DNA of 64,000 nt. Origin: an uncultured Planctomycetales bacterium. Lineage in GTDB: Bacteria > Omnitrophota > Gorgyraeia > Gygaellales > Profunditerraquicolaceae. The DNA lies in NCBI GenBank assembly GCA_964603585.1, contig CAZRVK010000009.1:7319-71318 (forward strand). Direction: 5' to 3'. Made by a program: the position numbers and the translations under genes. Shown here piece after piece: positions 11,145-48,900 of this stretch (position 1 is the stretch's first letter; the number at the start of each line of letters is the position of its first letter). Under the pieces are notes generated by a model. It was not told the origin of the DNA. It was given only the letters and a program-made list of their open reading frames with translations, and did not search any database.

Positions 11145-11217
11145 AGCCGATGAGAGGGATCGAACCTCCGACCTTGACTTTACGAAAGTCCTGCTCTACC
11201 AACTGAGCTACATCGGC
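11145..11217 (-). tRNA. tRNA-Thr (anticodon CGU)
   Basis: The reverse complement GCCGATGTAGCTCAGTTGGTAGAGCAGGACTTTCGTAAAGTCAAGGTCGGAGGTTCGATCCCTCTCATCGGCT folds as a cloverleaf with anticodon loop TTCGTAA. Confidence 0.75.
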
Positions 11218-11652: not shown

Positions 11653-11672
11653 AACCCAATCTTAAAAAAATA

Positions 11673-11709
11673 CCCCGTATGGATTTAACTCCATGCGGGG
11701 TTTTTATTT
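11673..11709. terminator. bidirectional rho-independent terminator
   Basis: CCCCGTATGG..CCATGCGGGG stem followed by TTTTTATTT, between convergent cspA and paralog 1. Confidence 0.65.
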
Positions 11710-13348
11710 ATGGCGCGCTTCTTACGAAACGGGCGCCAAACCAGCTTGTACGCCCCGTTCCCGGATTGTCAGCCCGGTAAGAAATAAACCCGGTCGAGGT
11801 AGGGCTTTCCCAGCTGTTCCCGCGGAAACCGCGATTACCCGGAGGATCATAATAAACGCTATTATAAGCTCCCCCCGCATACCCGGGCCAATCAGTATTA
11901 TTGGCATAACCAGAAGTGGTTAAACTGCCGTCACCATGCGTGCCTTCAAAAGCCCGGTCAGTAGAATTACCGACCGTAACTGAACGTTCATAGACATTGC
12001 CGGCTAACTCCATATTACCATAATAACCTGCACCGGATTCCGCCCGGGTAGAATTTGCAGTAGCAAGAATTCCCGACCGCACAGGTCCACTGCCACCGTC
12101 GCCGCCGTCAAACCCTGTGAAACCTTCATTAGACATTATAACATTTGCCCCGGGATTAGCTATCGTCTCCGTACCATCCTCACTGCCAGAAATAGAAGTT
12201 GCTATAACAAGACTGCCCGTGCCATCTACTGTATCGCCTCGAAAAGCAGCATCTGGGCCGCGGGAGGCCTTTTCAAACTCCAGTTCGGTCATCGGCCGCA
12301 ATCCCGCCCAATCCGCATAAGCACAAAGATCCATCCAAGAGAGATAATTGCATGCCCTGTTCGGCCGGGTGGTCGCAGCATCCCCGCTTGACCAGGAAAT
12401 AGTATTACGATTAACTACGCTATCGCTGTTTTTACCGTTTACCCCGGTAAGATCACGGGCAGACTTTTGAGTAGCGGTTAAGCTGTTAAAGAAATCCACC
12501 CACTGGCCTTCAGTCACTTCATATTTCATCAAGTAAAATGCATTATACCCGGTAGGGAAATTAGCATTGTCAATACTTCCATCATTATTGGTATCCAAAC
12601 CAGACCATACCCCTGAACCGCCAATACCAATCCCTGTATTGATAAGCTGTGAATCATCTCCGAATCCGGAAGCAACACGTATATTCCTGGTTAAAGAAGT
12701 GCCGATCACTACTCCGGAATTACTTGTCCCGGAATGAAAAGCTCCTTGACTCTCACCATCCCCATCGCCATCACCAAGATAAAAACTGCCAGCCGGGATA
12801 TACACCATCTCTATTGCATAAACTTTTACGCGCGCGGAAGTGTCCGCAGATAAACCATTCTGGCCCCAGTTCCATTTTAACCCCACAAAAGCCGCGCTCA
12901 CTTGTCCGGCTCCCGCGCTATTTCTCTGAATAAACGCCCCCATCCCACGGATATTTCCGCCAACCGTACTCGTGCCAACCTTTACTTCATAAGGAGGATC
13001 ACAAGTATGATCCGAACCGGTGGTGGACAGATATGCATGATGCCAGGTACTGCCGGAGTCAGTGGAATATTTCGCGAATACCCAGACTGCATCATAATTG
13101 ACCTCATTGCGCCAGGAATTATTCCAGGAAAGTTCAAAACCTATCCTGGCAGTTTGATTAACACTATCTTGATCACTTATAAAAATCGCACCACTATCGA
13201 TGGTGAGGTTATTGGCAAAACTTTGCCCAAAAGGAAGGGAACAAAAAATCAAAGCTATCCCCATCAGAATAATATACAATTTATAAATTTGTTTTAACGC
13301 ACTCATTAAACTCATAAGTTTTGTACTTATACTCCCTTCCACGATCAT
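11708..13348 (-). CDS. secreted FGE-sulfatase (SUMF1/DUF323) C-type-lectin-fold domain protein, paralog 1
   Basis: Sec signal peptide (cleavage about SFA/NN) and an N-terminal beta-rich domain. The FGE-type domain runs from IEMVYIPAGSFYLGDG through RPMTELEFEKASRG and GNMELAGNVYE to RGNSW and GARFVRSAP at the C-terminus. It is very rich in Ser, Thr, Gly and Asn. Confidence 0.7.
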   Translation of the reverse strand: MIVEGSISTKLMSLMSALKQIYKLYIILMGIALIFCSLPFGQSFANNLTIDSGAIFISDQDSVNQTARIGFELSWNNSWRNEVNYDAVWVFAKYSTDSGSTWHHAYLSTTGSDHTCDPPYEVKVGTSTVGGNIRGMGAFIQRNSAGAGQVSAAFVGLKWNWGQNGLSADTSARVKVYAIEMVYIPAGSFYLGDGDGDGESQGAFHSGTSNSGVVIGTSLTRNIRVASGFGDDSQLINTGIGIGGSGVWSGLDTNNDGSIDNANFPTGYNAFYLMKYEVTEGQWVDFFNSLTATQKSARDLTGVNGKNSDSVVNRNTISWSSGDAATTRPNRACNYLSWMDLCAYADWAGLRPMTELEFEKASRGPDAAFRGDTVDGTGSLVIATSISGSEDGTETIANPGANVIMSNEGFTGFDGGDGGSGPVRSGILATANSTRAESGAGYYGNMELAGNVYERSVTVGNSTDRAFEGTHGDGSLTTSGYANNTDWPGYAGGAYNSVYYDPPGNRGFRGNSWESPTSTGFISYRADNPGTGRTSWFGARFVRSAP

Positions 13349-13417
13349 TTAGCAAAACCATACGGAGGAATTATCAGATCAAGAAATATGTACGGGTTAA
13401 ATCATGCAAAATCTTTA

Positions 13418-15097
13418 TTACGGATAACTTCTAACAAACCGGCCGCCCAACCACTGCGGCGAAGGAGTCACAGCTTTTCCATCCTCCGAACCAGGATAAA
13501 AACGAGTAGAAAGGCCGGTCAAATAAAAAACTCCTCCGGTCGATGTCCATAAACTCGTTTCTCCACTACCCCCGCGATCGCCTCCTGAAAGATCACTGGC
13601 AACGCCACTGCCGCTTACATACCCCGGCCAATCAGTATTCGTACCATATCCATTGGTAGTTAAACTGCCGTCTCCATGCGTGCCTTCAAAAGCCCGGTTA
13701 GTGGTGTTACCCACACTGACTGACCGCTCGTATACATTGCCGGCTAACTCCATATTCCCGTAATAACCTGCTCCGGCAACTGCCCGGGTAGAATTAGAAA
13801 CAGAAAATATTCCTGCACGCAATGGCCCAGTGCCGCCATCTCCGCCGCTGTAAACCGCAGGAGAAAAACCTCCCGCCAGCTGATAAACAGCAAACACCGC
13901 ATCACCTCCGCCGCTGACGGTTTCCGTGCCGTTCTCACTGCCGGAAATCGTCTGTGCAGAAGTTACAGCCGTCGTGCCAAAGACCGTCTGATTAGCCAAG
14001 GTACTGCTGGCTCCCCGGGAAGCTTTTTCAAATTCCAGTTCGGTCATCGGCCGCAACCCTGCCCAGTCCGCATAAGCGCAAAGGTCTGCCCAGGAAAGAT
14101 AATTGCATACCCTGTCTGAACGGGTAGTAGTGGCCGAACCCGATCCCGGCCAGGCAATGGTATTACGATAAACCGTGCTCTGGCTATTCTTGCCGTTAAT
14201 ACCGGTTATATCCCTGGCAGATTTCTGTGCGTCGGTTAAACTATTAAAGAAATCCACCCATTGCCCTTCTGTAATTTCATACTTCATCATATAAAACGGA
14301 TTATACCCCGTAGGAAAACTGGCATTATCGATCGTTCCGTCATTATTGGTGTCTAGGCCTGACCAAACGCCTGATCCACCGATACCAATACCTGAATCAG
14401 TTAATTGGGAATCATCACCTGGTGCCGTCCGCTCAACACTTATATTCCTGGTTAAAGATGTCCCGATTAACGCAGGGGTTGTAGAGCTTAAAGTACAAAA
14501 AGCCCCCGGGCTTGCCCCATCGCCAATATAGAATCCCCCTGCCGGGACATAAACCATTTCTATAGCATAAACTTTTACGCGCGCGGAAGTAGTGGCGGAT
14601 AAACCGTTCTGGCCCCAGTTCCATTTTAACCCCACGAAAGCCGCGCTCACTTGTCCGGCTCCCGCGCTATTTCTCTGAATAAACGCCCCAATCCCGCGGG
14701 TATTTCCGCCAACCGTACTCGTGCCAACCTTTACTTCATAAGGAGGATCACAAGTATGATCCGAACCGGTGGTGGACAGATATGCATGATGCCAGGTACT
14801 GCCGGAGTCAGTGGAATATTTCGCGAATACCCAGACTGCATCATAATTGACCTCATTGCGCCAGGAATTATTCCAGGAAAGTTCAAAACCTATCCTGGCA
14901 GTTTGATTAACACTATCTTGATCATCTATAATAACCGCGCCACTATCGATGGTGAGGTTATTGGCAAAACTTTGCCCCAAAGGAAGAAAGCAAAAAATCA
15001 AAGCTGTTCCACCCAGGATAAAACGCAACTTATAAATTTGTTTTAGCGCATTCATTAAACTCATAAGTTTTGTACTTATACTCCCTTCCACAATCAT
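13418..15097 (-). CDS. secreted FGE-sulfatase-domain protein, paralog 2
   Basis: The 5' part (about 400 nt) and the upstream intergenic region are nearly identical to paralog 1. The C-terminal 60-70 aa diverges, including indels. Confidence 0.7.
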   Translation of the reverse strand: MIVEGSISTKLMSLMNALKQIYKLRFILGGTALIFCFLPLGQSFANNLTIDSGAVIIDDQDSVNQTARIGFELSWNNSWRNEVNYDAVWVFAKYSTDSGSTWHHAYLSTTGSDHTCDPPYEVKVGTSTVGGNTRGIGAFIQRNSAGAGQVSAAFVGLKWNWGQNGLSATTSARVKVYAIEMVYVPAGGFYIGDGASPGAFCTLSSTTPALIGTSLTRNISVERTAPGDDSQLTDSGIGIGGSGVWSGLDTNNDGTIDNASFPTGYNPFYMMKYEITEGQWVDFFNSLTDAQKSARDITGINGKNSQSTVYRNTIAWPGSGSATTTRSDRVCNYLSWADLCAYADWAGLRPMTELEFEKASRGASSTLANQTVFGTTAVTSAQTISGSENGTETVSGGGDAVFAVYQLAGGFSPAVYSGGDGGTGPLRAGIFSVSNSTRAVAGAGYYGNMELAGNVYERSVSVGNTTNRAFEGTHGDGSLTTNGYGTNTDWPGYVSGSGVASDLSGGDRGGSGETSLWTSTGGVFYLTGLSTRFYPGSEDGKAVTPSPQWLGGRFVRSYP

Positions 15098-15166
15098 TTA
15101 GCAAAACCATACGGAGGAATTATCGAGTCAGGAAATATGTGCAGGTTTAATTATGGAAAATCTTTA

Positions 15167-16807
15167 TTAAGGATAACTTCTGACAAAACGGGCGCCATAC
15201 CAGGCTTCTTCCGGAGCATAATCACCCTCATCCGCAGAATTAATATATTTACGTGTAGAAAGCCCGCTCTGTAATCTATAATCCGGGGTTGAAGTATACA
15301 GAAGATTACTCCCACTTCCACCCCGTAATCCAGTAGTAATACTGCCCGTAACGCCACTGCCGCTTACATACCCCGGCCAATCAGTATTCGTACCATATCC
15401 ATTGGTAGTTAAACTGCCGTCTCCATGCGTGCCCTGAAAAGCCCGGTTAGTGGTGTTACCGACACTGACTGACCGCTCGTATACATTGCCGGCTAACTCC
15501 ATATTCCCGTAGTAGCCTGCTCCGGCAACTGCCCGGGTAGAATTAGAAACAGAAAATATCCCAGCGCGCAATGGCCCGATGCCTCCATCGCCGCCATAAA
15601 AAGTTACGGAATAACACCTTTCTCCGCTAATACAAGTAGCAAAAAGGGCGTTGCCTACACCACTGATAGTTTCAGTACCGTTCTCACTGCCGGAAATCGT
15701 CTGTGCAACCGTAATATCACTGCCGGAAACTGTTTGGCCAGCCGAATAAGTACTTGGACCGCGGGAAGCTTTTTCAAATTCCAGTTCGGTCATCGGCCGC
15801 AATCCTGCCCAGTCCGCATAGGCACAAAGATCCGCCCAGGAAAGATAATTGCATACCCTATCAGGACGGGTAGTAGTGGCATTGCCCGATCCCGGCCAGG
15901 CAATGGTATTACGATAAACCGTACTCTGGCTGTTCTTGCCGTTAATACCGGTTATATCCCTGACAGATTTCTGTGCGTCGGTTAAACTATTAAAAAAATC
16001 CACCCATTGCCCTTCGGTCACTTCATACTTCATCATATAGAATGGATTATACCCAGTGGGAAAACTGGCATTATCGATCGTTCCGTCATTATTGGTGTCC
16101 AAACCTGACCAAACGCCGGAACCGCCCACACCAATACCTGAAGTATCTAATTGAGAATCATCCCCTGGAGCTGCCTGTTCAACAATTATATCCCTGGTTA
16201 AAGATGTCCCGATTAACGCAGGGGTGGTAGAACCTAATTTACAAAAAGCCCCCGGGCTTGATCCATCTCCAATATAAAAACTTGCGGCCGGGATATACAC
16301 CATTTCAATAGCATAAACTTTCACGCGCGCGGAAGTAGTAGCGGATAAACCGTTCTGGCCCCAATTCCACCTTAAACCGACAAAAACACTGTTGATTGTT
16401 CCCGTTCCGGCAGCATTTCTTTGAACAAATACCCCCATCCCGCGGGTATTTCCACCAACGGTGCTTGTGCCAACCTTAACTTCGAGAGGATAATCACAAT
16501 CATGATCCGAGTTGGTAGTAGAAAGATAAGCATGATGCCAGGTGTTCCCTGAATCAGTAGAGTATTTTACGAAAACCCAGGCGGCATCATAATTGATCTC
16601 ATTACGCCAGGAATTGTCCCAGGTAATTTCAAAACCCACTCTGGCAGTTTGATTGGCTGTATCTTGTTCATCTATACTAACGTAAGAACTCTCTATTATA
16701 AGATTATTGGCAAAAGCCTGATTAGAAAGAACAACCCAGAAAATAAAGATTGCTCCAAACAAGACACACCGGTGCCTGGATCGCCATTTAGCTGTAGTCA
16801 TAAGCAA
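15167..16807 (-). CDS. secreted FGE-sulfatase-domain protein, paralog 3
   Basis: Same architecture with a different signal peptide. It has its own promoter. Confidence 0.7.
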   Translation of the reverse strand: MLMTTAKWRSRHRCVLFGAIFIFWVVLSNQAFANNLIIESSYVSIDEQDTANQTARVGFEITWDNSWRNEINYDAAWVFVKYSTDSGNTWHHAYLSTTNSDHDCDYPLEVKVGTSTVGGNTRGMGVFVQRNAAGTGTINSVFVGLRWNWGQNGLSATTSARVKVYAIEMVYIPAASFYIGDGSSPGAFCKLGSTTPALIGTSLTRDIIVEQAAPGDDSQLDTSGIGVGGSGVWSGLDTNNDGTIDNASFPTGYNPFYMMKYEVTEGQWVDFFNSLTDAQKSVRDITGINGKNSQSTVYRNTIAWPGSGNATTTRPDRVCNYLSWADLCAYADWAGLRPMTELEFEKASRGPSTYSAGQTVSGSDITVAQTISGSENGTETISGVGNALFATCISGERCYSVTFYGGDGGIGPLRAGIFSVSNSTRAVAGAGYYGNMELAGNVYERSVSVGNTTNRAFQGTHGDGSLTTNGYGTNTDWPGYVSGSGVTGSITTGLRGGSGSNLLYTSTPDYRLQSGLSTRKYINSADEGDYAPEEAWYGARFVRSYP

Positions 16808-16835
16808 GCATATTGAAATGCGTGTATTATCTATA

Positions 16836-16863
16836 AGTATAAACTTACCTCTTAATTTGTCAA
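16836..16863 (-). promoter_or_regulatory. sigma70-type promoter for paralog 3 (TTGACA, 16 nt spacer, TATACT)
   Basis: On the minus strand: ATTGACAAATTAAGAGGTAAGTTTATACTTATAG. Confidence 0.5.
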
Positions 16864-16880
16864 TATTAATAGATAAAATC

Positions 16881-18605
16881 TTACTGCGAAAGATCCTCTA
16901 AGATCTGGGGCAAATCTCCCTGCTTAATCAATTTCTTAAAGTATAGTTTTTTGGCGATATTGGCTCTTTTTTTTACGATTCTTTCTGAACGGTCCCAAAC
17001 AGTAAACTGCCTGGGATTAGGCAGTATCACTGCCAAACGGATCGCCTCGGGCATGGTTAAATCCGATGCCGGCTTATTAAAATAAACCTGCGCAGCAGAT
17101 CCTGCCCCATAGATCCCATTCCCCCACTCCACAATATTCAGATAAAGCTCGAGAATTCGGTTTTTTGATAAGGATCTTTCCAACTTATACGCAATAATCA
17201 TCCCCCGTATTTTCCGAATGATACTTTTTGACGGGTTAAGAAATAGGTTTTTTGCCAACTGTTCGGTGATCGTTGAAGCACCTGAAGTAATTTTTTTCTC
17301 TGAAACCACCCTCCTTAACGCCCAATCAAAACTCTCCCAATCAAACCCTCTGTGATCAAAAAAATTACGATCCTCGGCAACAACCACCGCATCAACCAGG
17401 TTCTGGGATATCTGGCTTAAAGGTGTATATTGCCACTGGATAAGATATGGCTTATCCAGATTGGCTGCTTCATTATTGCGGATACGCATCAAAGCAGTCT
17501 CTGAAGGATTCCTCTCTTTCAACCAGGAAATATCCGGAGTGAAAAACCAGAACAATAATGACATAAAAACAATAACAGCAAATAAACAAGCTATCCCCAT
17601 TAACACTTTTCTTCGTAAGATTTTTAATGAATACTTTTCATCTGCACCGCTTGCGCTTGCGTTAACCCCCATAATAAAACCGCACAACAGGCAAAAAAAC
17701 ATATAAAAATTGCTCTTATAAAGTAATGCCCCCCGGTTCAACTCAATTAAAATCACGGCAAGAATCAATATACCGGCAAGTAAAGCTTGTTTTTTATTAT
17801 CCTGCGTGATCCGGATAAACCCTGAAATACCGCGTTTAAATAACGCAGATACCAGGACAATAAATCCTGATAGCCCGATCAAACCGGTTTCTATCAATAA
17901 GCTAAGGTACATATTATTCATTGCAGATTTAGACACCCATCCGCGTTTAAAAGGATAATATTGATCGAAAACATACCCGTACCTGTCCAGCCCCACCCCT
18001 ACAAAAGGATAATCTTTGAATATCTCCAAAGACATCTCCATCTGCAGGGGTCGGTACGGATAAAAAATATCCCGGTTAAACACTCCCGGGAAGAAATGAC
18101 TTATTGCTATTGCCATCAATAATACGACGGAGGAAATAATGAAGCTTTTATACCGCTTATTCGCCAAAAGATAAACCAGCACCGCAGTGATCAGTATCAA
18201 AACCATCTGCTTGCCGATAAAAGCGGCTAACCCTCCGGAGAGCAAGAAAACCTTAATGGCAAGACGTCTATCTTCATCTGAAAAGGACAAAGATTTACCG
18301 ATGTAAAAAAGAAAGAACATGTTCGTAGATAGGTCAAGGTATATGCCTAAGGCCAGGTCTTTTCTTGACACCGGAAAAAGGCAGGCGCAAAGGCCTATTA
18401 TGAATAACCACACCGGCCAATCAGACAACGTAACCAAGCCCGGCGCTTCTTTTTTGGCAGGCAATAAATAACAAAAAAAAGCAAGTAAGAATAACTTTAC
18501 CAAGAGCACATATTCTTTTTGCACTTGTAAAGGAACAAAGAAAATCAAAATAAAAAGGGAACTGATAAAAAAAAGGTTTTTAGGTATATTTATCTTTATC
18601 GGCAT
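16881..18605 (-). CDS. polytopic membrane domain (O-antigen-ligase/Wzy-like, unverified) fused to a GT51 peptidoglycan transglycosylase (MtgA-like) domain
   Basis: About 10 TM helices in the first 340 aa. The C-terminal domain carries GT51 motifs: EDRNFFDHRGFD, GASTITEQLAKN, RKIRGMIIAYKLE, and a GxG motif. Confidence 0.65.
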   Translation of the reverse strand: MPIKINIPKNLFFISSLFILIFFVPLQVQKEYVLLVKLFLLAFFCYLLPAKKEAPGLVTLSDWPVWLFIIGLCACLFPVSRKDLALGIYLDLSTNMFFLFYIGKSLSFSDEDRRLAIKVFLLSGGLAAFIGKQMVLILITAVLVYLLANKRYKSFIISSVVLLMAIAISHFFPGVFNRDIFYPYRPLQMEMSLEIFKDYPFVGVGLDRYGYVFDQYYPFKRGWVSKSAMNNMYLSLLIETGLIGLSGFIVLVSALFKRGISGFIRITQDNKKQALLAGILILAVILIELNRGALLYKSNFYMFFCLLCGFIMGVNASASGADEKYSLKILRRKVLMGIACLFAVIVFMSLLFWFFTPDISWLKERNPSETALMRIRNNEAANLDKPYLIQWQYTPLSQISQNLVDAVVVAEDRNFFDHRGFDWESFDWALRRVVSEKKITSGASTITEQLAKNLFLNPSKSIIRKIRGMIIAYKLERSLSKNRILELYLNIVEWGNGIYGAGSAAQVYFNKPASDLTMPEAIRLAVILPNPRQFTVWDRSERIVKKRANIAKKLYFKKLIKQGDLPQILEDLSQ

Positions 18606-20329
18606 TGTTTTATACTAAGCTCCAGCAACTTTATCCCCAATGTACGCTCATCGCCATTGCCGGGTTTTTTTATGATAGGCGCCTCAAAAGTGATATTATT
18701 GATCTGGTTGAACCTAATCATCCCTGCGTCAAATACCAGGGATTGCCTTTTTGAGCGATTTCCAACTGTCAAGTTGCCAATCAATCGATTATTCAGAAAA
18801 ACACTGACAACCTGGTTTACCAAGGATTCAGCGTGAATAACCAGGGCATACTCCCTGCAATCATCTTCTTTATCTTTAAGCCTCAATAAAAGCACGGATC
18901 TTTTTGCCAGGCTCCAGCGGTATCTGGCATTCGGCCATGACCAGCCCTCGACAAATATCGCCTGGCTGTAACCATCAAGCCCTATCCGTTCATTCATTTT
19001 GTATTCCCGCATTGTTTTCTTTAACTGCGGATAATAACTCTGGTAATTACCGCCCAACCTCGTGCCGCGTAAAAACTGGATATCCTGCAAATTCCAGGCC
19101 CTCTCCTGGTTATAGTTAATATCATTTGGCTCCCAGTTCCATTTCCATACCTCCCAATCAGTCGCCCCGCGGTAATGCACAAAGAAACTGAATGCCAAAA
19201 ACAGCCAAAAAATTAGTCCCGCCAACATCCGCTTTTTATTTTTCCGGCTGAATATTAAAGGGATAACCGGGATAATGAAATAAATAAAAAAAGGAATTAT
19301 ATCCGAAATATAACGCGAGCCAAAAGATGCGCCGGCACACCAATAAGGGATAAGGGAAGCCGCCAGCCAATACAGAAGCATCGTTATCAGCACAAAATAA
19401 TCCAAACGTCCAAACTTAGCGCTTTTTATTTTCAGATAAATCCCCAGAATAGAAAATAAGAGTATGGGGGAAAAAATAAATATCCCCCGGGAAGGGCTGA
19501 CCAAATGGCCAAGCAGCCTCACAAAAAAACCCGCATCGACCCCGGTTTTTCTATAAAGATAATACTTCGGCAGGATCGCTCCATATATATTCAAGTTATG
19601 GATAAAAAACAAGCCGATAATTACCGTCAGCCAAAAGAAATAATACAACGCGTATTTCCGGTAAGAGAACAAGATAAATATCGAGAAAATACCGATGACG
19701 ATAATGTTCGTTGGCCTGACTAAATAGGAAAAGGCCAGGGTGATCCCCGCAAATTGCGCTAAGTACGGTTTTTTGCGCGCTAACACAAATAGGTACAAAG
19801 TTAAAGCCAAAAACAGCATTGACGGCCCGTGCTGCCATAAGGCCCGCGTGCCGATCGACCAGGCAGAGGTACAGAAACTAAAAATAAAAGTAACCAGCAA
19901 TGCCTGGATCTTATTGATAAATTGGCTCGCCAAAAGGTAAATTAAAGCCGCGCATAAAGCAATAATGCATGATGCAATCAGGCGCTCTATCTGTTCATAA
20001 TATTCGGTAAGGTCAAGATCCCAGAAACGATTGAAGATATAAACAAATGGCACAGCAACCAGAGATACCCCAAGAGGGAATATCGTATAGAAATGTCCCC
20101 GGGAGTTTATAATAGTCCAGCCGCCGTGGGTTCGAGAAAGGATTGTGGAGTAATCGATGTATTCATCCAGGTCGGTATTGCCTTCTTTAAGGAGGCTAGT
20201 TGCGGTATGTATTGTCCAGCTGGAATCCCAGGCAGTTGTAATAGGTAATCTTGCATTAATCAATGTTACGCATATGCTGATTGCCAGGGCGATAACAAGA
20301 TTACTGGTAACAAGCCTCTTAATTGTCAT
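18596..20329 (-). CDS. GT-C fold membrane glycosyltransferase (ArnT/PMT-like, family uncertain)
   Basis: About 11 TM helices plus a C-terminal extracytoplasmic domain. The ORF track begins at TTG 20368, but an ATG at 20329 (MTIKRLVTS...) sits 6 nt after a TGGTATAAT element. This suggests a leaderless start. Confidence 0.55.
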   Translation of the reverse strand: MTIKRLVTSNLVIALAISICVTLINARLPITTAWDSSWTIHTATSLLKEGNTDLDEYIDYSTILSRTHGGWTIINSRGHFYTIFPLGVSLVAVPFVYIFNRFWDLDLTEYYEQIERLIASCIIALCAALIYLLASQFINKIQALLVTFIFSFCTSAWSIGTRALWQHGPSMLFLALTLYLFVLARKKPYLAQFAGITLAFSYLVRPTNIIVIGIFSIFILFSYRKYALYYFFWLTVIIGLFFIHNLNIYGAILPKYYLYRKTGVDAGFFVRLLGHLVSPSRGIFIFSPILLFSILGIYLKIKSAKFGRLDYFVLITMLLYWLAASLIPYWCAGASFGSRYISDIIPFFIYFIIPVIPLIFSRKNKKRMLAGLIFWLFLAFSFFVHYRGATDWEVWKWNWEPNDINYNQERAWNLQDIQFLRGTRLGGNYQSYYPQLKKTMREYKMNERIGLDGYSQAIFVEGWSWPNARYRWSLAKRSVLLLRLKDKEDDCREYALVIHAESLVNQVVSVFLNNRLIGNLTVGNRSKRQSLVFDAGMIRFNQINNITFEAPIIKKPGNGDERTLGIKLLELSIKQCR

Positions 20330-20335
20330 TTTTAG

Positions 20336-20364
20336 ATTATACCACCCTGGCTTAACCTTGATAA
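20336..20364 (-). promoter_or_regulatory. promoter with TTATCA, 17 nt spacer and extended -10 TGGTATAAT; likely leaderless mRNA
   Basis: On the minus strand TTATCAAGGTTAAGCCAGGGTGGTATAATCTAAAAATG, so the ATG lies at about +1. Confidence 0.5.
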
Positions 20365-20594
20365 GCAATTTATAGCAATAAGGGTTTAAACATCTCTAAT
20401 ACCGCTTCAAGCATAAAAAAACTGAACGGTTAAGTCCAGGCGGGGAAAATACTACCCTAAAAGTGGTTAATGGCAGTTCAACTCCCAAGGCCTTTTTTAA
20501 ATATCCGGCTGTAACAAAAAACCAACAGGCTCAAAATAAATACCCAAGAGATAATCATGAACATCCCGCCGCTAAATGTCATCTGGCCCCCCGC

Positions 20595-23277: not shown

Positions 23278-25515
23278 TTATACTTTCTTTAACGCCGCAA
23301 GTTCGGTAATAATATTCCCTGCCCAGCGATAAATATTGTTCTCCATGACCACCTTCTGCATCTTCTCCATCCGCCTTGTTTTTTCCTCACCCGGCAGGTC
23401 AAGGGCTGACTTTATACTGTCGGCAAACTCTTCTATCGAATAGGGATTTACTTGAACCGCATCGGTCAACTCTCTTGCTGCCCCGGTAAACTGGCTTAAA
23501 ATCAGGGCGCCCGAGAGGTCTTTTTTGGCCGCTACGTATTCCTTGGCCACAAGGTTCATCCCGTCATGAAGCGAGCTAACGATACAAAGATCGGCCATTT
23601 TATAAAACGGCTCGATTTCATCCAGTGAAAAATGCTTTTTAAGATAAATGATCGGTTTCCAGCTATGATCGGAATATTTCCAGTTTTTCTTCTCGATTAA
23701 TTCGTCGATTTCTGCCATCAGGTCATGATAACGCTTTATATGCACGCGGCTGGGGGCAGCCAGCTGGATAAAAACAAATTTCTTCTGATACTCCGGGTAC
23801 TTTTCTAAAAACCTGTCTATCGCAAGCACCCTTTCCACGATCCCTTTTGTATAGTCGATCCGATCGACCCCCAGGCCAATGATTTTTCCTTCAAGATCAA
23901 ACTCCTTCTTAATCGTATCCACCTCTTGCATTACTGCTGGATCATTTCGGCTTTGATTTAAATGCCCATTAACACTGATCGGAAAAGCCCGCACAAAAGT
24001 TTCTTTTTCGGAACGGACAATACTGAACTTCTCCAAGTCAACTCTTGATTCAAGGAGCCTGTTAGCTGTATCCAGGAAATTATTGCAATGGTTCTGCACA
24101 TGAAAACCTATTAAATCGCACCCAAGCATCCCTTCCAGGATCTCTTTGCGATAAGGGCAAATGGAAAATGCCTCTGGGGTAGGCCAAGGTATATGCCAAA
24201 ACATGGCGATCGTAACGTCGGGACGCTTCTCCTTGATCATTTTCCCAAGCAGGGTAAAATGATAATCCTGAATGAACACAAAGGCGTGTTTGGCGGGAAG
24301 CTCATCTAAAACAGAATCCGCGAACTTCTGATTCACCTTCTTATAAATCTGCCAGTCCGAATCACGAAAGATCGGCCGGGTATGTGTATTATGGCTTAAA
24401 GGCCATAACCCCTCATTGGAAAACCCGTAATAATAACCGTCCTCTTCTTCTTTATTAAGCCATACCCTTTTTAAGATATAACGTATATCTTTAGGCGGGA
24501 CACCGAGCTTGTCCTTTGAATTGACGAATTTTTTATCCACATTCCCGGACCCGTGAGCAATCCATGTGCCGCCACAAGCACATAAAACCGGGTGAAGCGC
24601 CGTAACCACCCCGCTTGCAGGCCTGATACATCTTTCTAAACCAGTTGCCTCATCAGCTATATGCATATATGGCTCACGGTTAGAAACTACAAATAACGAA
24701 TTCTCACCCAGCTTAGCCCGGACAAGGTCTTTTAATTTTACTTCCGTCCATATTTCTTCTTTTTCTATACGCACCTGTGCTTCGTCGGAGATCGAACGCC
24801 TGGCGACCCTTAAATTCAAAGCCACCTGCTCAACCTCACTGGCAAGTTTGCCTAAATCCCCCTTTTCCCTGATAGGATGTGCTTCATCGGTTTCGCCTTT
24901 CTGAAAATATTGAAACCAATCCGTGAGCCGTTTAATAGGCAAAACAAAGATCTGCCGATGCAAAAGAATGGATATCGCAAAGATCACTACTACTAAGATT
25001 ATTAACGTCGAGCTAATACGTCTCCAGAGTTCAGTTAACCTGGCAAAAACATATGAGGTATCATGTATAACCTCGATCATTCCCAAAAGCTCGCCCTCAT
25101 CATCAAGGATAGGAAGGATATAACTGTAAATCTGGTAATCCTTAAACTGCTCCATTTCCCCTCTGGGGGATTTGCCGGTCAAAACATCTTTGATATAAGG
25201 CTTATCTTTTTCTTTCCAATCGCCGAAACGTTTAGTAAGCGCGATTATATTACCGTCTTTGTCATAAATAGCGCACCCCTGTAATCTTTCCCTGGTTTCA
25301 AACTTCTCGGTAAGATAATTTGCGTTCTTGAGATCATTGGCTAAAAGCACGTGTTTTACCGATAATTCCATGCTTTCAGCGATGCTTTTGGCTTTTCGTT
25401 TCAAGTCATCAATCAGCTTCTCTTCTTCAAAACGCACCTGAAAGAAACCAAAAAGCGTAAAAGCCGCGGAAACAATAATTAAGATCGGCAGGATAAATAA
25501 AAGGACTCTTCGCAT
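23278..25515 (-). CDS. otsA: membrane sensor-HAMP domain fused to trehalose-6-phosphate synthase
   Basis: A TM helix (residues 5-25), an extracytoplasmic domain of about 140 aa, a second TM helix and a HAMP-like segment. A full OtsA GT20 domain then runs from about residue 265 to 745, including a VNPYS motif. GAGGTGG Shine-Dalgarno. Confidence 0.8.
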   Translation of the reverse strand: MRRVLLFILPILIIVSAAFTLFGFFQVRFEEEKLIDDLKRKAKSIAESMELSVKHVLLANDLKNANYLTEKFETRERLQGCAIYDKDGNIIALTKRFGDWKEKDKPYIKDVLTGKSPRGEMEQFKDYQIYSYILPILDDEGELLGMIEVIHDTSYVFARLTELWRRISSTLIILVVVIFAISILLHRQIFVLPIKRLTDWFQYFQKGETDEAHPIREKGDLGKLASEVEQVALNLRVARRSISDEAQVRIEKEEIWTEVKLKDLVRAKLGENSLFVVSNREPYMHIADEATGLERCIRPASGVVTALHPVLCACGGTWIAHGSGNVDKKFVNSKDKLGVPPKDIRYILKRVWLNKEEEDGYYYGFSNEGLWPLSHNTHTRPIFRDSDWQIYKKVNQKFADSVLDELPAKHAFVFIQDYHFTLLGKMIKEKRPDVTIAMFWHIPWPTPEAFSICPYRKEILEGMLGCDLIGFHVQNHCNNFLDTANRLLESRVDLEKFSIVRSEKETFVRAFPISVNGHLNQSRNDPAVMQEVDTIKKEFDLEGKIIGLGVDRIDYTKGIVERVLAIDRFLEKYPEYQKKFVFIQLAAPSRVHIKRYHDLMAEIDELIEKKNWKYSDHSWKPIIYLKKHFSLDEIEPFYKMADLCIVSSLHDGMNLVAKEYVAAKKDLSGALILSQFTGAARELTDAVQVNPYSIEEFADSIKSALDLPGEEKTRRMEKMQKVVMENNIYRWAGNIITELAALKKV

Positions 25516-41584: not shown

Positions 41585-42832
41585 TCAATACTGCTTTTTC
41601 CCACGATAAAAAGCATCCAGTGCAGCAGGAAAAGGGGATAAAACCCTCTCTACTACACCTTGCAGCAGAGATATGCAAATACCGTAATTCGTGACGGCGA
41701 CCCCGGAATCTTTCGCCTTTTGCATCCTAAACAGCATCTCTCTGCGGTTCAACATACATCCGCCGCAATGAACAACCAGTTTATATTCCCGCAGGTTCTC
41801 CGGATAATCATGACCGGAACAAATATCAACTTCCAGATCAACCCCGGCATACTGCCTTAACCAACGGGGTATCTTTATACGCCCAATATCATCTTCTATG
41901 GCGTGATGACTGCAGGCTTCAGCAATCAAAACTTTATCATTGGCTTTTAATCTGTCGATCACCGCGGCACCCCTCGCCGCTTCTATCAAGTCGCCTTTAA
42001 AACGGGAGAAAAGAATGGAAAATGTAGTGCATAAGATATCTTTCGGAGTGTCCGCCACCATCTTTAATACCACCTGCGAATCACATACTACCAGGTCCGG
42101 AGGCGACTTCAATCTTGCCAGTAAATGCGCATACTCACGCTCCTTAACTACCAAAGCCGCGGCATCATTATCCAGGGCATCACGTATGGTTTGCACTTGC
42201 GGCAGGATCAGACGACCTCGAGGCGCCTCCAGATCAATGGGAACAATTAAAACTGCAAGCCCCCCGCAAGGAAGCAAATCACCAACCAAAGGCGAAGGAT
42301 TCAAGAATTCATCAGGACAAACAGCCAAAAGATGCTGTTTTAGGATATTGATATAAGTATCCCGTTCAGACAGATTGATGCTGGAGCAGGCAAAATAATG
42401 CGCGCTTTTAGATGCAAGATGTTTGACAAATCCATCCGTAAGGGCCCCCAAGTCACTTTTATTAACAACAATGATCACCGGGATTTCTTTCTTTACTGCC
42501 TCACCAAGTATATTATCCTCATACTCATTCCAAACCCCTGGCTCGGTTAAAAGCATGATTATATCTGAACGCTCAAAGACCTTCTTGGTCTTTTTAAGCC
42601 TAAGAGAGGATAGCAATGATTTATCATCCAGGCCTGCGGTATCTAAAAAAACCACCGGACCTAAAGGTAAAAGTTCCATGGTTTTTTCTACCACATCGGT
42701 TGTGGTTCCTGCAACCGGAGAAATGATCGCTACATCCTGGCCCGCTACCATATTCAAGAAACTGGATTTCCCGACGTTCGTACGGCCGAATAAACCGATA
42801 TGCAATCGTAGTGATTTAGGAGTTTTTTCCAT
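41585..42832 (-). CDS. hydF: [FeFe] hydrogenase maturase GTPase HydF
   Basis: G1 motif GRTNVGKSS, a GTPase domain and a C-terminal CxH...C cluster domain. Confidence 0.8.
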   Translation of the reverse strand: MEKTPKSLRLHIGLFGRTNVGKSSFLNMVAGQDVAIISPVAGTTTDVVEKTMELLPLGPVVFLDTAGLDDKSLLSSLRLKKTKKVFERSDIIMLLTEPGVWNEYEDNILGEAVKKEIPVIIVVNKSDLGALTDGFVKHLASKSAHYFACSSINLSERDTYINILKQHLLAVCPDEFLNPSPLVGDLLPCGGLAVLIVPIDLEAPRGRLILPQVQTIRDALDNDAAALVVKEREYAHLLARLKSPPDLVVCDSQVVLKMVADTPKDILCTTFSILFSRFKGDLIEAARGAAVIDRLKANDKVLIAEACSHHAIEDDIGRIKIPRWLRQYAGVDLEVDICSGHDYPENLREYKLVVHCGGCMLNRREMLFRMQKAKDSGVAVTNYGICISLLQGVVERVLSPFPAALDAFYRGKKQY

Positions 42833-42920
42833 AAATATAGTCCCTTTGCTGTTGTTAGGGTCACCATCCTGGCCCTAGTCCCAAAACCACAACTTACCTT
42901 AAACCTTTAAACAAATTCAA

Positions 42921-43979
42921 CTAAGCCAGATCACTAAATAAACTATCTCCCCGCGAATAATCAAGCTCCCTGCCTATAGAGTTTACTTTCTTCTTCAAGC
43001 AGCCAAGACAGGTACGCGACTCTTCACTGATACATCTTTTGCCGGGATAAATCTCATAGAGGGCTTTGTATTTCAAAGGCGTAAAGTTCGGCATCAAAAC
43101 ATTGGCGCCGATCTTTAAACCATCAACGCGGTAATCCTCCTCCTGACTGCCTAATGCAGTAGTTGCCGGAAGATGCGGATATTTTGTCACAATGCGTGTT
43201 AACGCCAAGGTTTTTAAGGTAAGGCGCGTATCTCCCCTGGATTGCGAAGACAATTTAGTCCTCTGATGGGGGATAAACGGCCCGATACCGATCATATCAA
43301 AGTTATTCTGCTTAAAGAAAATGATGTCTCCGGCAATATGCTTCAGACTTTGGCCCTTTAAACCAATGATATTGCCTGAACCAACCTGATATCCCAATTC
43401 TCTCAACTGGCGTAAACATCTTAGCCGGTTTGGGAAACTCATCCCCGGATGAAGCGATTCATATAACTTCCGGTCCGAAGTCTCTATTTTTAATAAATAC
43501 CGGTCAGCTCCGGCCCGGCGCCATACTTTATATTCTCTAAGCGTTCTTTCCCCCAGGCAAAGCGTTATCGCAATACTAAACTTGGCCTTTATTTCTTGAA
43601 TAATCCCGGCAAACCAGAGATAATCCAGAGCATCATCCTCCCCTGACTGCAGAACTACAGTTTTTATGCCGGCTGCGGACAATCGCGCGATACTTCCCAG
43701 GATCTCTTTGCTGGTTAAACGGTACCTTTGTAAATTGCGGTTATTCCGATTAAGGCCGCAATATAAACAGGCATTCCGGCAAAAGCTTGAGAACTCGACG
43801 ATACCTCTTAACAAAACGCCCGGACCAGCAAATTCAGCTCTAACCTCATCGGCAAAACAAAAAAGCTTGCACAATGCAGCATCGTTCTTTAAGGAAAGCA
43901 GATACTCGAGATCTTTACTATCGGGGATATCTGCGTCATAGATCCTTTTTAAAATCAGGTCCGTTTTAGACAAACTCAT
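42921..43979 (-). CDS. hydE: [FeFe] hydrogenase maturase HydE (radical SAM)
   Basis: CRNACLYC radical-SAM motif, 352 aa, biotin-synthase-like. Confidence 0.8.
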   Translation of the reverse strand: MSLSKTDLILKRIYDADIPDSKDLEYLLSLKNDAALCKLFCFADEVRAEFAGPGVLLRGIVEFSSFCRNACLYCGLNRNNRNLQRYRLTSKEILGSIARLSAAGIKTVVLQSGEDDALDYLWFAGIIQEIKAKFSIAITLCLGERTLREYKVWRRAGADRYLLKIETSDRKLYESLHPGMSFPNRLRCLRQLRELGYQVGSGNIIGLKGQSLKHIAGDIIFFKQNNFDMIGIGPFIPHQRTKLSSQSRGDTRLTLKTLALTRIVTKYPHLPATTALGSQEEDYRVDGLKIGANVLMPNFTPLKYKALYEIYPGKRCISEESRTCLGCLKKKVNSIGRELDYSRGDSLFSDLA

Positions 43980-45357
43980 CCCTCATCCCATTATCAATAT
44001 CGGCAAAAAATCTTGGCAGTTGATCAATGATATCCTTGTCCAGCTGCTGTTTAAGCTGGTCAATTAACTGATACCCATCCCTTTTGACCTTTGGAGAAGC
44101 AAAATCATCAAGGTATTCTTTTAAGGTAATTATAGCGTTAAGGCTGCATTTGCCTTTAATCGTCCCGGGTTTCGCTAAGTTCATAAACGCCTCTCCGGTC
44201 CTTTCCTTGCGGTAACAGGCCGCGCAAAAACTAGGGATAAACCTTTTTTCGATCAAAGATCCCACAACATCATCCAGGGTACGCTGATCTCCTAAAGTAA
44301 ATTGGATATCGGTATCTTGATTATTGTCTGCAGAGGAATACCCCCCGGGCGAGGTCCTAGACTCCGCGCTTATCTGCGATACGCCTAAAGAGAATAAGGC
44401 ATCACGCATTTGCGCATTCTCACGAGTAGAAAGGATTAATCCGGTATAAGGCACTGCCAGCCGGATGACCGCAACTAATTTCTTAAAATCATCGTCGTTG
44501 ACCTTATAAGGCATATCCCGGGTGAATTCGACTCCTTCTGCCGGCTCAATGCGCGGGACCGAGATCGTATGCGGGCCAACATTAAAGGTATTCTCCAGAT
44601 GCTCTACATGCATCAGCATCGCCAGCGTATCGAACTTCCAATCGTACAAACCATATAATACACCGATGCCTACATCATCTATACCGGCATGAAATGCCCG
44701 GTTTACCGCATCCAGTCGGTTATCCGGGTCGCTTTTAGGGCCTTTAGGATGCAGCCGGCGGTAAGTTTGTTCATGATAAGTCTCCTGAAATATCTGATAG
44801 GTCCCAATCCCGGAAGATTTCAATTGTTTAAAATCTTCGGTACTAAGAGGCGCACAATTTATATTCACTCTTTTGATCTTATGTACTCCCACGCCTGCGG
44901 CATAAACCGCCCTTACCGCAGCAGTATAATAATCTACATTTCTCAAGCCTCCTGGTGCAGATTCTCCGGCAACAACCAGTATCCTTTTATGCCCGCGCCT
45001 AAGGAGCCACTCTACCTGCTTCTTTATCTCATCAGGGCTAAGCGCTTTTCTTTTGGTAACCGGGTTATCGAATTTAAAAGCACAGTAAAGGCAATTATTT
45101 GAACAAAAGTTACTGATATAAAGCGGAGCAAAAAGCACCACCCTGCGGCCATAAATTGTATCTTTGACATAAGAAGCCGCGGAAAAGATCTTATTTAATA
45201 AGCCCGGATCGCTGACATTTAGAAGTATGGCGGTTTCCTTTAGTGTTAACCGGCATAAGGATCTTGATTTATTTAAGATCTTTTCCACCTCCACGAAAGG
45301 GACCTGCCGGGTATCATCTAAAAGGCTAAAGATCTTTTTATCATCAATATATTTCAT
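43966..45357 (-). CDS. hydG: [FeFe] hydrogenase maturase HydG (radical SAM tyrosine lyase)
   Basis: CSNNCLYCAF and the C-terminal Cys motif CAACYRKE. 463 aa. Confidence 0.8.
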   Translation of the reverse strand: MKYIDDKKIFSLLDDTRQVPFVEVEKILNKSRSLCRLTLKETAILLNVSDPGLLNKIFSAASYVKDTIYGRRVVLFAPLYISNFCSNNCLYCAFKFDNPVTKRKALSPDEIKKQVEWLLRRGHKRILVVAGESAPGGLRNVDYYTAAVRAVYAAGVGVHKIKRVNINCAPLSTEDFKQLKSSGIGTYQIFQETYHEQTYRRLHPKGPKSDPDNRLDAVNRAFHAGIDDVGIGVLYGLYDWKFDTLAMLMHVEHLENTFNVGPHTISVPRIEPAEGVEFTRDMPYKVNDDDFKKLVAVIRLAVPYTGLILSTRENAQMRDALFSLGVSQISAESRTSPGGYSSADNNQDTDIQFTLGDQRTLDDVVGSLIEKRFIPSFCAACYRKERTGEAFMNLAKPGTIKGKCSLNAIITLKEYLDDFASPKVKRDGYQLIDQLKQQLDKDIIDQLPRFFADIDNGMRDEFV

Positions 45358-47148: not shown

Positions 47149-48900
47149 TTATTTTACGTAAATCGGCCTTGCCTTATAATGCACATGCAGGAGTTTTTCC
47201 GATCTCTCTCCCAAAGGTTTGCCCAGGAACTCATTATAAAGCCTTTTAATGTACGGGTTCTGATGGCTTGAACGAACTTCTTTTTGATCATCATCCTGAT
47301 ATAAAGCCTGTGCCCTTTTAATCCTTAGTTCATCGGTAACCATATAAGGCTGGCCTCCGCCACCTACACAACCGCCAGGACAAGCCATAACCTCAATAAA
47401 ATGATAGGGGATCTCCTGGTTATTCTTTTTTGCATCCCTTATCTTATCGATAAGATATTCAACATTGCTCAAACCATGGGCGATCGCGATCCGGATCTTC
47501 TTTCCCCCCACTTCAATCTCTGTTTCTTTAACTCCCTTTAAACCTCTTACACTCTCAAATTCGACCTTTTTTAATTCCTTGCCGGTAATGAAATAATGCG
47601 CGGTCCTTAAAGCCGCTTCCATTACCCCACCGGTAGCGCCAAAGATTACCCCAGCTCCGGCATATTCGCCCAGAATAGAATCAGATTCTTCATCGGGCAG
47701 ATTGTCGAAATCTATTCCCGCCTGCTTGATCATACGCACTAATTCCCGTGTCGACAAAACCACATCAATATCCTGAAAACCAGATGCCGACATTTCTTCG
47801 TTCCTGGTAATCTCATACTTTTTAGAAGTACACGGCATGATCGAAACCATATATATCTTGGCCGGATCGATTTTATTCTTTTCGGCATAATAAGTCTTGG
47901 AAAGCACCCCTAAGATCTCATGCGGTGATTTACAGGAAGAAAAATGTTCGATCATATCCCCATGGAACTTCTCCATAAAATCAACCCACGAAGGGCAACA
48001 TGTAGTAATTAACGGCAGCGGCCGTTTACCCGACAACAATCTTCCTTCAAATTCACTGGCCTCTTCCATGATCGTAACATCGGCGGCAAAAGATGTATCG
48101 AAAACTGCCTTAAACCCTAAGCGCCGCAGCAATGCATACAGCTTTTTAGTAAAATTCTTGCCTACGTAGCCAAATGCCTCTCCGATAGAGACCCTTACTG
48201 CTGGAGCGATCTGAACCACACAATATTTATCTGTATCCTGCAAGGCTTTCCAGGCTAACGCCGTATGGTCCTGTTCAACGAAAGCTCCTGTTGGGCAATG
48301 GGCCGAACACTGGCCGCAACGCACACAAGGAGAATCTGCCAACTGGATATCCCCGGCAGGAGAGATCCTGGTCTTAATACCTCTTTCCAAGAATGACAAC
48401 GCCCAAACATCCTGGCATTCCTGGCAGACATAAACACACCTGCCGCAAAGGATACATTTCTTAGGGTCAAGATCAACCGCCCGGGTAGAAGTATCGATCG
48501 GCAGATCTCTTAAGAACTGCGGGAATGATTCTTCTTTAATCCCGAACTCGGCAGTAAGTTTTTGCAATTCACACTCATTATTCCTGCCGCATTTAAGGCA
48601 GTCATTGGGATGATTGGATAAAATCAATTCAATAACCGTTCTTCTTATCTCGACGATCTCCGGGTCATGGGTAATGATATCCATCCCCTCATCCAAAGGC
48701 GTACAGCAGGCACGCAGCATCTTATGCGTACCCCTTAATTTAACGATACAAATACCGCAGGATGCCGAAGCAGGCAGATCCGGATGTTTGCACAACGTAG
48801 GGATCTTTATCTGCACCTGCTTAGCCGCTTCCAGAATAGTCGTTCCGGCTTCCACCCTCAAGAGAATACCGTTTATCTTTGCTTGGATTATTTTAGCCAT
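47149..48900 (-). CDS. hndD: [FeFe] hydrogenase catalytic subunit HndD-like
   Basis: N-terminal 2Fe-2S and 4Fe-4S domains. H-cluster motifs are intact: L1 TTCCPSW, L2 MPCTSKKYE, L3 EVMACPGGCVGGGGQP. Confidence 0.85.
   Translation of the reverse strand: MAKIIQAKINGILLRVEAGTTILEAAKQVQIKIPTLCKHPDLPASASCGICIVKLRGTHKMLRACCTPLDEGMDIITHDPEIVEIRRTVIELILSNHPNDCLKCGRNNECELQKLTAEFGIKEESFPQFLRDLPIDTSTRAVDLDPKKCILCGRCVYVCQECQDVWALSFLERGIKTRISPAGDIQLADSPCVRCGQCSAHCPTGAFVEQDHTALAWKALQDTDKYCVVQIAPAVRVSIGEAFGYVGKNFTKKLYALLRRLGFKAVFDTSFAADVTIMEEASEFEGRLLSGKRPLPLITTCCPSWVDFMEKFHGDMIEHFSSCKSPHEILGVLSKTYYAEKNKIDPAKIYMVSIMPCTSKKYEITRNEEMSASGFQDIDVVLSTRELVRMIKQAGIDFDNLPDEESDSILGEYAGAGVIFGATGGVMEAALRTAHYFITGKELKKVEFESVRGLKGVKETEIEVGGKKIRIAIAHGLSNVEYLIDKIRDAKKNNQEIPYHFIEVMACPGGCVGGGGQPYMVTDELRIKRAQALYQDDDQKEVRSSHQNPYIKRLYNEFLGKPLGERSEKLLHVHYKARPIYVK

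Follow-up and report, generated by a model that had tools for sequence, protein, structure and literature searches.

The present study describes a tandem array of three paralogous genes, P1, P2 and P3, found in a 64,000-nt stretch of DNA (hereafter, the window) from an uncultured Planctomycetales bacterium placed by GTDB within the Omnitrophota (GenBank assembly GCA_964603585.1, contig CAZRVK010000009.1, positions 7,319 to 71,318 of the forward strand). We propose that the array is probably an orphan tandem set of secreted two-domain binding proteins which carry three specificities on one scaffold. A first-pass annotation made from the sequence alone had reported three head-to-tail paralogs of 546, 559 and 546 aa, and the open reading frames (ORFs) were found exactly at 11708-13348, 13418-15097 and 15167-16807, with two 69-nt spacers in between. 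The segment close to the C-terminus in which the paralogs diverge most is, in homologs from other genomes, the variable region (VR) of diversity-generating retroelements (DGRs), and we refer to it as the VR-equivalent. The diversity present in the window is a fixed three-member repertoire, which arises via paralogy and segmental gene conversion. The features of the array are the following (dS, synonymous divergence; CLec, C-type lectin):

15167..16807, minus strand: paralog P3, 546 aa, which starts with TTG and opens the array; it comprises a signal peptide, an Fn3-like N-domain and a non-catalytic FGE/CLec-fold domain
15191..15349, minus strand: DGR-VR-equivalent of P3, about residues 487-539
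13418..15097, minus strand: paralog P2, 559 aa, middle gene of the array
About 14966-15097, 14528-14965 and 13421-14527, minus strand: signal peptide, N-domain (residues 45-190) and FGE-fold domain of P2
13826..14011, minus strand: second variable segment of P2, residues 363-424; its counterparts in P1 and P3 are diverged too, and AF2 confidence is low
13601..13846, minus strand: P2/P3 conversion tract, 95% identical to 15350-15595, with 99% protein identity and dS 0.13
13442..13600, minus strand: DGR-VR-equivalent of P2, residues 500-552, with an insertion of ~14 residues relative to the family
11708..13348, minus strand: paralog P1, 546 aa, at the end of the array, with a C-terminal segment that runs colinear with the canonical variable region of the family
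12768..13067, minus strand: core of the P1/P2 conversion tract, N-domain coding, 93% identical to 14517-14816, with 180 nt at 100%
11726..11836, minus strand: DGR-VR-equivalent of P1, about residues 505-541 (GFRGNSW...FGARF), placed by alignment with DGR-targeted homologs; lowest identity between paralogs
11672..11701, no strand: likely bidirectional terminator that closes the array, a 12-bp GC-rich hairpin between T/A runs, 7 nt past the P1 stop

The FGE domain announced by the first-pass annotation was recovered with the FGE-sulfatase model (PF03781), against which P1-P3 score 45.7-48.6 bits for a gathering score of 23.3, the match covering profile positions 35-128 of 255 only. They have a three-dimensional fold in common with solved members of the FGE/C-type-lectin-like superfamily. 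Structure prediction of the paralogs supported the FGE fold and left the two variable segments below pLDDT 50. The N-domain, previously described only as beta-rich, resolved as an Fn3/Ig-like beta-sandwich that has no Pfam model. Regarding the Sec signal peptide, P1-P3 do start with a hydrophobic segment and an AxA-type site, and we infer from these the cleavage between SFA and NN and the export itself. In line with the richness claimed earlier, Ser, Thr, Gly and Asn make up 40-42% of the mature proteins, the value for 32 other ORFs from the window being 21%. A lipobox was found neither in P1-P3 nor in the family, as there is no conserved cysteine at the predicted SFA/NN site. The cysteines of FGE (human C336 and C341; GGS(Y/W)xC....C) are also missing from the family profile and from P1-P3, and none of them has a cysteine in the stretch that aligns with 'GGSYMCHRSYCYRYRC' of human FGE. 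The DinB-like N-domain of EgtB, OvoA and SenA is absent, since TIGR03440 gives 19-20 bits for a cut-off of 360 and the SenA model 19-20 bits for a cut-off of 420. A formylglycine-generating or EgtB-type enzyme was rejected on account of the lost Cys pair and the lack of a DinB-like domain.

Comparison of the three genes revealed a mosaic. P1 and P2 are identical in 377 of their first 400 nt, and in 199 of the 200 nt from 201 to 400; identity falls to 87% both in the first 100 coding nt and in the upstream spacer (60/69 nt). Thus, the near-identity described earlier for the first 400 nt and the upstream region holds for nt ~100-500, and to a lesser degree for the first 100 nt and the spacer. 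A second conversion tract joins P2 and P3, whose proteins reach 92% identity over residues 191-362 and 99% over residues 425-499; both this tract and the second variable segment (P2 residues 363-424) had been overlooked. The dS values follow the same pattern: in the N-domain, 0.15 between P1 and P2 and 0.84-0.91 between either of them and P3; in residues 425-499, 0.13 between P2 and P3 and 0.74-0.89 between either and P1. Residues 363-424 and the last ~50 residues show 26-52% identity in every pair, with dS >0.9. Such mosaic dS across P1-P3 constitutes a signature of segmental gene conversion, and the concerted evolution suggested by the first-pass annotation is supported for two tracts, one in the N-domain of P1/P2 and the other in residues 425-499 of P2/P3, which the nucleotide alignment mapped at 12768-13067 and 13601-13846 respectively. 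The divergence of the three C-terminal ends is also real, as amino acid identity is 15-44% there (two alignments) versus 72-99% in the scaffold. Across the family, 40 pairs of paralogs from the same locus have a mean identity of 29% in the VR-equivalent, the least conserved segment, versus 50-58% in the scaffold, in agreement with what had been claimed about the C-terminus. A locus from Verrucomicrobiota (L059:6180-9676) presents a mosaic like that of the window, where two of three paralogs are 88-100% identical in the N-terminal part of the FGE domain, the loop and the core, and only 62% identical in the VR-equivalent. Beyond its called family genes, this locus has one more copy of the 3' region, 236 nt long and 85% identical.

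The role of the divergent segment is suggested by four homologous loci (L009, L010, L024 and L053), whose family genes are ~41% identical to P2. In all of them, a second copy of the 3'-terminal 123-135 nt of the gene lies 0.7-1.8 kb downstream, the mismatches are located at adenines of this template (14/14, 13/13, 20/21 and 13/13, respectively), and genes for an RVT_1 reverse transcriptase and bAvd lie beside the family gene. These are textbook DGRs, with complete cassettes at L009:6859-9179, L010:1707-3833, L024:8692-10741 and L053:1808-3773. An unusual DGR accessory, a small ORF with MutS domain I (PF01624, 83 bits), is placed between the target and bAvd in L009 and L010. The variable region of the homologs (RGGNW NN..TN AR.SDR NN AA NT..R NNNN GGRCV) aligns column for column with the divergent segment of P1-P3. 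Because the very same segment is the DGR variable region in the four loci, the C-terminus of the paralogs is probably a ligand-binding site, as the first-pass annotation had proposed from its position in the fold. Wu et al. (2018, PMC5758913) described "category b" DGR targets, of which TvpA is the type, in which a CLec1 variable region lies inside an FGE-sulfatase domain; these targets have a non-catalytic FGE-subclass C-type-lectin domain with variable ligand-binding residues at the C-terminus.

No such retroelement was detected around P1-P3. A repeat search over the whole 64-kb window and a blastn-short search with the three 3' ends gave no template repeat, and neither tblastn with the reverse transcriptases of related loci nor Pfam on the scanned ORFs gave a reverse transcriptase in the window. 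A DGR codon signature is also missing from P1-P3, where the positions equivalent to AAY use, among others, GAA, GGA, ACA, TGG, CCG and CAG, codons that cannot derive from AAY by adenine mutagenesis. In addition, NNY codons are not enriched at these positions (6/11, 3/11 and 8/11 in the three paralogs versus 0.59-0.64 gene-wide). An active DGR in the window was rejected given the lack of template repeat, reverse transcriptase and codon fossil.

The family of P1-P3 is very large, with more than 3200 homologs at E <= 1e-5 among 8000 candidates, and the N-domain alone is present in 1838 representative clusters (50% identity), nearly all of them proteins of ~500 aa with the domain at the N-terminus. 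Public records name its members "SUMF1/EgtB/PvdO family nonheme iron enzyme" or "hypothetical", and Pfam and NCBIfam contain no model for the family, for the N-domain or for the partner motif described below. The closest NCBI homolog (P0004), located on a 180-kb contig, shows 55% identity. Family-specific insertions comprise THGDG...DWPG and the loop at residues 363-424. Scanning one genome per species yielded 80 loci in the genomes of other species, which belong to Omnitrophota (many labelled Planctomycetales), Bacteroidota, Ignavibacteria, Verrucomicrobiota, Kiritimatiellia, Lentisphaeria and Cloacimonadota; the family comes mostly from Omnitrophota, and the cultured Bacteroidota that possess it include Winogradskyella, Jiulongibacter and Neolewinella. 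A search for formylglycine in the Omnitrophota literature returned no match. The organism of locus L087, a close relative (sample SRR31558123), has at least two further family copies on separate short contigs (L092 and L093) with different flanks, so the family is multi-copy and assembly-breaking there too.

With three loci around homolog P0007, the survey amounts to 83 loci, whose ORFs were clustered to define the usual neighbours of the family. Directly downstream of the FGE-like gene or genes, 60 of 78 loci encode a secreted protein with an AQ[YF]xGGxxxG motif right after the signal peptide, which was found in only 12 of 631 other ORFs (Fisher p 2e-58). The motif-bearing partners are otherwise unrelated and comprise giant repeat, GGxGDGF-repeat, T9SS-CTD (C-terminal domain of the type IX secretion system) and Ig-like proteins, for example at L021:11703-20012, L080:11433-12848 and L046:7593-8834. 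The motif may be a docking or sorting signal. In Omnitrophota, the cassette starts with an S41 peptidase, a GT2, a DUF2304 protein, a methyltransferase, a second GT2 and an ExeA-like AAA_22 ATPase, and continues with a protein weakly similar to the C component of type II secretion (T2SS-C), a secretin, a coiled-coil/TPR protein, 1-4 FGE-like genes and a giant repeat protein, which measures at least 2770-3331 aa as the locus ends truncate it; the cassette was found in loci such as L013, L015, L019, L021, L025, L027 and L034 (for example L021:3-11671). The ATPase/secretin/TPR trio presumably recalls MshM/MshL/MshN. Bacteroidota, Ignavibacteria and others have the family with the motif-bearing partner and without secretin. 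In the window, no homologs of the partner, secretin, ExeA-like, TPR, GT2, DUF2304 or S41 proteins were found, and the combination of a signal peptide and [YF]xGG gave a single match among its ORFs, a false positive within an SNF transporter. As both partner and secretin module are absent from the window, the array is an orphan.

Taken together, these observations are consistent with a repertoire of binding proteins. Each one combines a predicted Sec signal peptide with a conserved N-domain of the Fn3/Ig-like type and a C-type-lectin-fold domain of the FGE subclass, which is non-catalytic and whose last ~40-50 residues (RGGxW ... GGRxVR) would form the ligand-binding surface. In the window, gene conversion homogenises the scaffold, and the VR-equivalent and the second loop remain diverged. 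In this sense, three receptor-binding specificities may be kept as a hard-wired repertoire of paralogs that replaces retroelement mutagenesis, and the proteins probably bind surface structures of other cells or particles. The family would normally work together with the downstream secreted, often giant AQ[YF]xGGxxxG protein and, in Omnitrophota, also with a secretin/ExeA-like export system; judging from this context, the partner of the array would have to be encoded elsewhere in the genome.

Several points weigh against this interpretation. Positive selection on the variable segments is not demonstrated: dN/dS exceeds 1 in one pair only, and dS is high in the variable segments as well, where its saturation makes dN/dS uninformative. 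The confidence of the AF2 model drops below 50 in precisely the two variable segments, so the model does not capture the binding surface. P2 and P3 contain the ~14-residue insertion and do not have the tryptophan of the family RGGxW. Secretion is deduced solely from the N-terminal hydrophobic segment with its AxA-type site. The array could also be a decaying or functionally shifted offshoot of the family, as the window has neither partner nor secretin. Finally, the glycosyltransferase genes described below may have a functional link with the array that is specific to this lineage, given their synteny in L087 at ~70% aa identity.

Upstream of P3, two genes encode a GT-C-fold protein and a Wzy_C::GT51 fusion, and all five genes (GT-C, fusion, P3, P2 and P1) are co-directional, the ORFs of the first two overlapping by 10 nt:

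18596..20368, minus strand: GT-C-fold membrane glycosyltransferase, 590 aa as ORF (577 aa in the public annotation), with a C-terminal CBM-like beta-sandwich
16881..18605, minus strand: Wzy_C::GT51 fusion, 574 aa, adjoining the array, with EDRNFFDHRG and GASTITEQ
16836..16863, minus strand: sigma-70-like promoter match (TTGACA-16-TATACT, 11/12), the best of the region, in the 73-nt gap 5' of P3; a consensus match only

The fusion of a polytopic membrane protein with GT51 reported by the first-pass annotation is supported by both halves, which exceed their hidden Markov model (HMM) cut-offs: the N-terminal half matches Wzy_C (39.9 bits versus 31.7, residues 120-249), and the C-terminal half matches Transgly/GT51 with 180 bits and TIGR02070 with 200.3 bits for a cut-off of 182.65. 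The defining catalytic motifs of GT51 are EDxxFxxHxG and GxSTITQQ, and they are intact in the fusion as EDRNFFDHRG and GASTITEQ. For the Wzy_C half, a ligase, a polymerase or an O-oligosaccharyltransferase would all be compatible with the match. Among 5.8 billion proteins, the Wzy_C::GT51 architecture was observed in three clusters only, that of the window and those of a 70% and a 47% homolog; outside these clusters, the nearest GT51 domains occur in fusions with NlpC/P60 and SH3 instead. The other gene has no Pfam hit of its own, its HMM matches being sub-threshold, and 5 of 22 homologs match PMT_2. A profile search against PDB sequences gave no match for it, and only the fold search placed the protein: with the AF2 model (pLDDT 83), Foldseek matched the membrane part to GT-C enzymes only, that is STT3 (E 4.5e-5), EmbC, AftA, ArnT, ALG9/12 and PglB, and the C-terminal sandwich resembles BcsB and CBM6/35. 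This upholds the earlier description of a co-directional ArnT/PMT-like GT-C enzyme upstream of the array. Three acidic residues of its first extracytoplasmic loop, D48, E62 and E69, show little or no variation among the 22 homologs and are candidates for a catalytic role.

The first-pass annotation regarded these genes as a dedicated glycosylation or cell-wall-attachment system for the lectin-fold proteins, and the hypothesis that the five genes form one cassette, where GT-C and Wzy_C::GT51 O-glycosylate the FGE-fold proteins or attach them to the cell wall, deserves to be weighed even if we deem it unlikely. PglL and PilO, which are protein O-oligosaccharyltransferases, belong to the Wzy_C family, and protein mannosyltransferases are found among the GT-C enzymes. 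The five genes are co-directional with overlapping GT-C and fusion ORFs, the mature proteins contain 40-42% S+T+G+N, and the canonical Omnitrophota cassette of the family also has glycosyltransferases (two GT2). The proposal had been made dependent on a GT-C/GT51/FGE order conserved in related genomes, and this order recurs in L087 only, a 3.4-kb contig of a close relative with 66-77% aa identity. By tblastn, neither the GT-C nor the Wzy half was found in any of the 80 loci and the GT51 half was found in one (L052) as a stray match, and on this result a conserved GT-C/GT51 neighbourhood was rejected; the three loci around P0007 have neither gene. The richness in S, T, G and N is a trait of the family, seen also where the GT genes are missing, and the best promoter-like site lies between the fusion and P3. 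Orthologs of the fusion (P0123, 47%, L084) and of the GT-C protein (P0267 and P0268, 51% and 46%, L088 and L090) are placed in islands of polysaccharide type, among Wzy_C proteins, GT2s, stand-alone GT51, radical-SAM genes, PMT_2 and a Wzt-type ABC transporter, and FGE-like genes are missing from the 10 kb around them. Three genomes thus show GT-C with Wzy_C and/or GT51 as an association of its own, independent of the lectin-fold family. The GT-C orthologs of two other genomes adjoin Wzy_C proteins, with a stand-alone GT51 nearby in one case, and this points to a distinct module for envelope glycans. Most likely, the GT-C and Wzy_C::GT51 genes next to the array form a module of their own, for a lipid-linked glycan or the envelope, and share nothing but synteny with P1-P3 in this lineage.

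Other readings concern the proteins themselves. A more speculative one, which is rather unlikely, takes the family as the exchangeable hypervariable receptor-binding tip of a two-component surface fibre, in which the N-domain would dock on the QYxGGxxDG of the stalk and the C-type-lectin domain would bind prey or substrate. The stalk would be giant in Omnitrophota, exported through the secretin/ExeA-like module, and would carry a T9SS CTD in Bacteroidota; specificity would be varied by DGRs or, here, by tips maintained by gene conversion and stored apart from the stalk gene. Such a fibre, previously unrecognised, would span Omnitrophota, Bacteroidota, Ignavibacteria and PVC phyla. It is decidedly unlikely, somewhat more so than the glycosylation cassette, that the proteins are a structural periplasmic or outer-membrane scaffold of a secretion machine, like PorK/GldK/GldJ, serving the secretin that exports the giant partner. 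The position of the Omnitrophota genes directly after the secretin, the weakly T2SS-C-like protein, the ExeA-like ATPase and the TPR protein, with 1-4 copies per locus, would fit this role; however, the predicted SFA/NN site has no lipobox cysteine, Bacteroidota, Ignavibacteria and others have the partner without secretin, the window has no secretin module, and DGR hypermutation of the C-terminal surface of homologs fits variable ligand binding and not a fixed ring interface. Partners of the PorL/M/N (GldL/M/N) type were not found in the 83 loci, which show secretin-type or motif-bearing neighbours. Still less probable are active SUMF1/EgtB/PvdO-type enzymes that modify the AQYxGGxxxG of the partners as FGE modifies the linear CxPxR, an idea to which the names in public records, the confirmed FGE fold and the strict pairing with a short-linear-motif partner, which recalls enzyme-substrate gene pairs, lend some appeal. 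The Cys pair of FGE is absent, there is no DinB-like metal-binding N-domain (EgtB and SenA models give ~19 bits versus 360-420), the array has no partner gene, and the region of the FGE active site is hypervariable between paralogs and DGR-mutagenised in homologs, which is incompatible with a conserved catalytic site. Least credible of all, and very improbable, is that a retroelement located beyond the 64-kb window acts in trans on the three 3' ends and diversifies them as active DGR variable regions. Family members are genuine DGR targets, the C-terminal segment of P1 is colinear with their variable regions, and ~20 kb of the 84,210-bp source contig and the rest of the genome lie beyond the searched window. 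Against this, the window contains no reverse transcriptase homolog or template-like repeat, the codons are incompatible with AAY mutagenesis and NNY is not enriched, and P2 and P3 have the ~14-residue insertion, the three segments being too different for one template.

The window also contains other genes. On the 5' side of GT-C lies an unrelated trehalose operon with TreT, DUF5752, trehalose phosphatase and a Cache-fused GT20. The last (23278-25515, minus strand) is a trehalose-6-phosphate synthase (GT20, 418 bits) whose N-terminal extension of ~270 residues gives weak sCache/dCache matches, and such a sensor-fused OtsA appears unusual. Past the terminator hairpin there are a plus-strand cold-shock gene, a tRNA-Thr (11145-11217) and an MFS transporter; TreT and the MFS transporter gave no match by tblastn against the 80 related loci. 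The rest of the window contains anaerobic housekeeping genes, namely Rnf-like genes, two [FeFe]-hydrogenase sets and HydEFG, with the HydE/F/G maturases at 41585-45357. The hydrogenase sets are two paralogous [FeFe]-hydrogenase/NuoF-like gene pairs (47149-50643 and 51712-56724, minus strand), which the DNA repeats D6 and D8 link between 47.3-47.9 kb and 51.9-52.6 kb; the second NuoF-like subunit is a 1053-aa fusion with a pyridine-nucleotide-disulfide oxidoreductase domain.

The bacteria of the Omnitrophota are ultra-small and probably either prey on other cells or depend on a host. A very large unnamed family, mis-annotated as nonheme iron enzymes, is a candidate for their variable recognition module; its genomic association with giant surface proteins and a secretin, and the N-terminal motif of its partners, speak for this role. 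Although the locus described here is itself an orphan, it offers a family-level lead on target recognition by Omnitrophota and other bacteria. One and the same scaffold is diversified by two routes: some genomes rely on retroelements, and the window on gene-converted tandem paralogs. Our results also call for caution in annotation, since a match to FGE-sulfatase does not imply an enzyme, and co-directional neighbours alone, without comparative support, do not make a cassette.

Known systems offer several terms of comparison. FGE (SUMF1) and the non-catalytic pFGE (SUMF2) differ from the family in that the latter has no catalytic Cys pair and contains large insertions and an extra N-domain; moreover, the proteins of the window are bacterial, secreted and encoded in tandem arrays. 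PorK, GldK and GldJ are FGE-fold lipoproteins of the type IX secretion and gliding machinery of Bacteroidota, whereas the proteins of the window have neither a lipobox nor a PorN/GldN-type partner, the channel associated with the family is a secretin and not the type IX system, and its C-terminal surface, far from being a conserved ring interface, is hypervariable. Type II secretion-like loci beside giant genes of Omnitrophota were reported by West-Roberts et al. (2023, bioRxiv 10.1101/2023.11.21.568195); neither this work nor its 2026 follow-up mentions FGE, SUMF or sulfatase-fold terms. Similarly to those loci, relatives of P1-P3 are located between a secretin module and giant repeat proteins in metagenome-assembled genomes of Omnitrophota, but the window has neither the secretin nor the giant gene. 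The closest known systems are TvpA, the DGR variable protein of Treponema denticola (PDB 2y3c), and the category b targets. In contrast to both, the copies of the window have no template repeat, reverse transcriptase or DGR codon signature, and it is three gene-converted paralogs that carry the diversity. Compared with both, the family adds the conserved Fn3-like N-domain and the downstream AQYxGGxxxG partner, which are undescribed in DGR surveys such as PMC5758913. In this sense, variable binding proteins of the FGE-subclass C-type-lectin fold were already known, and the two-domain architecture, the diversification by paralogs and gene conversion and the family-wide partner rule are new.

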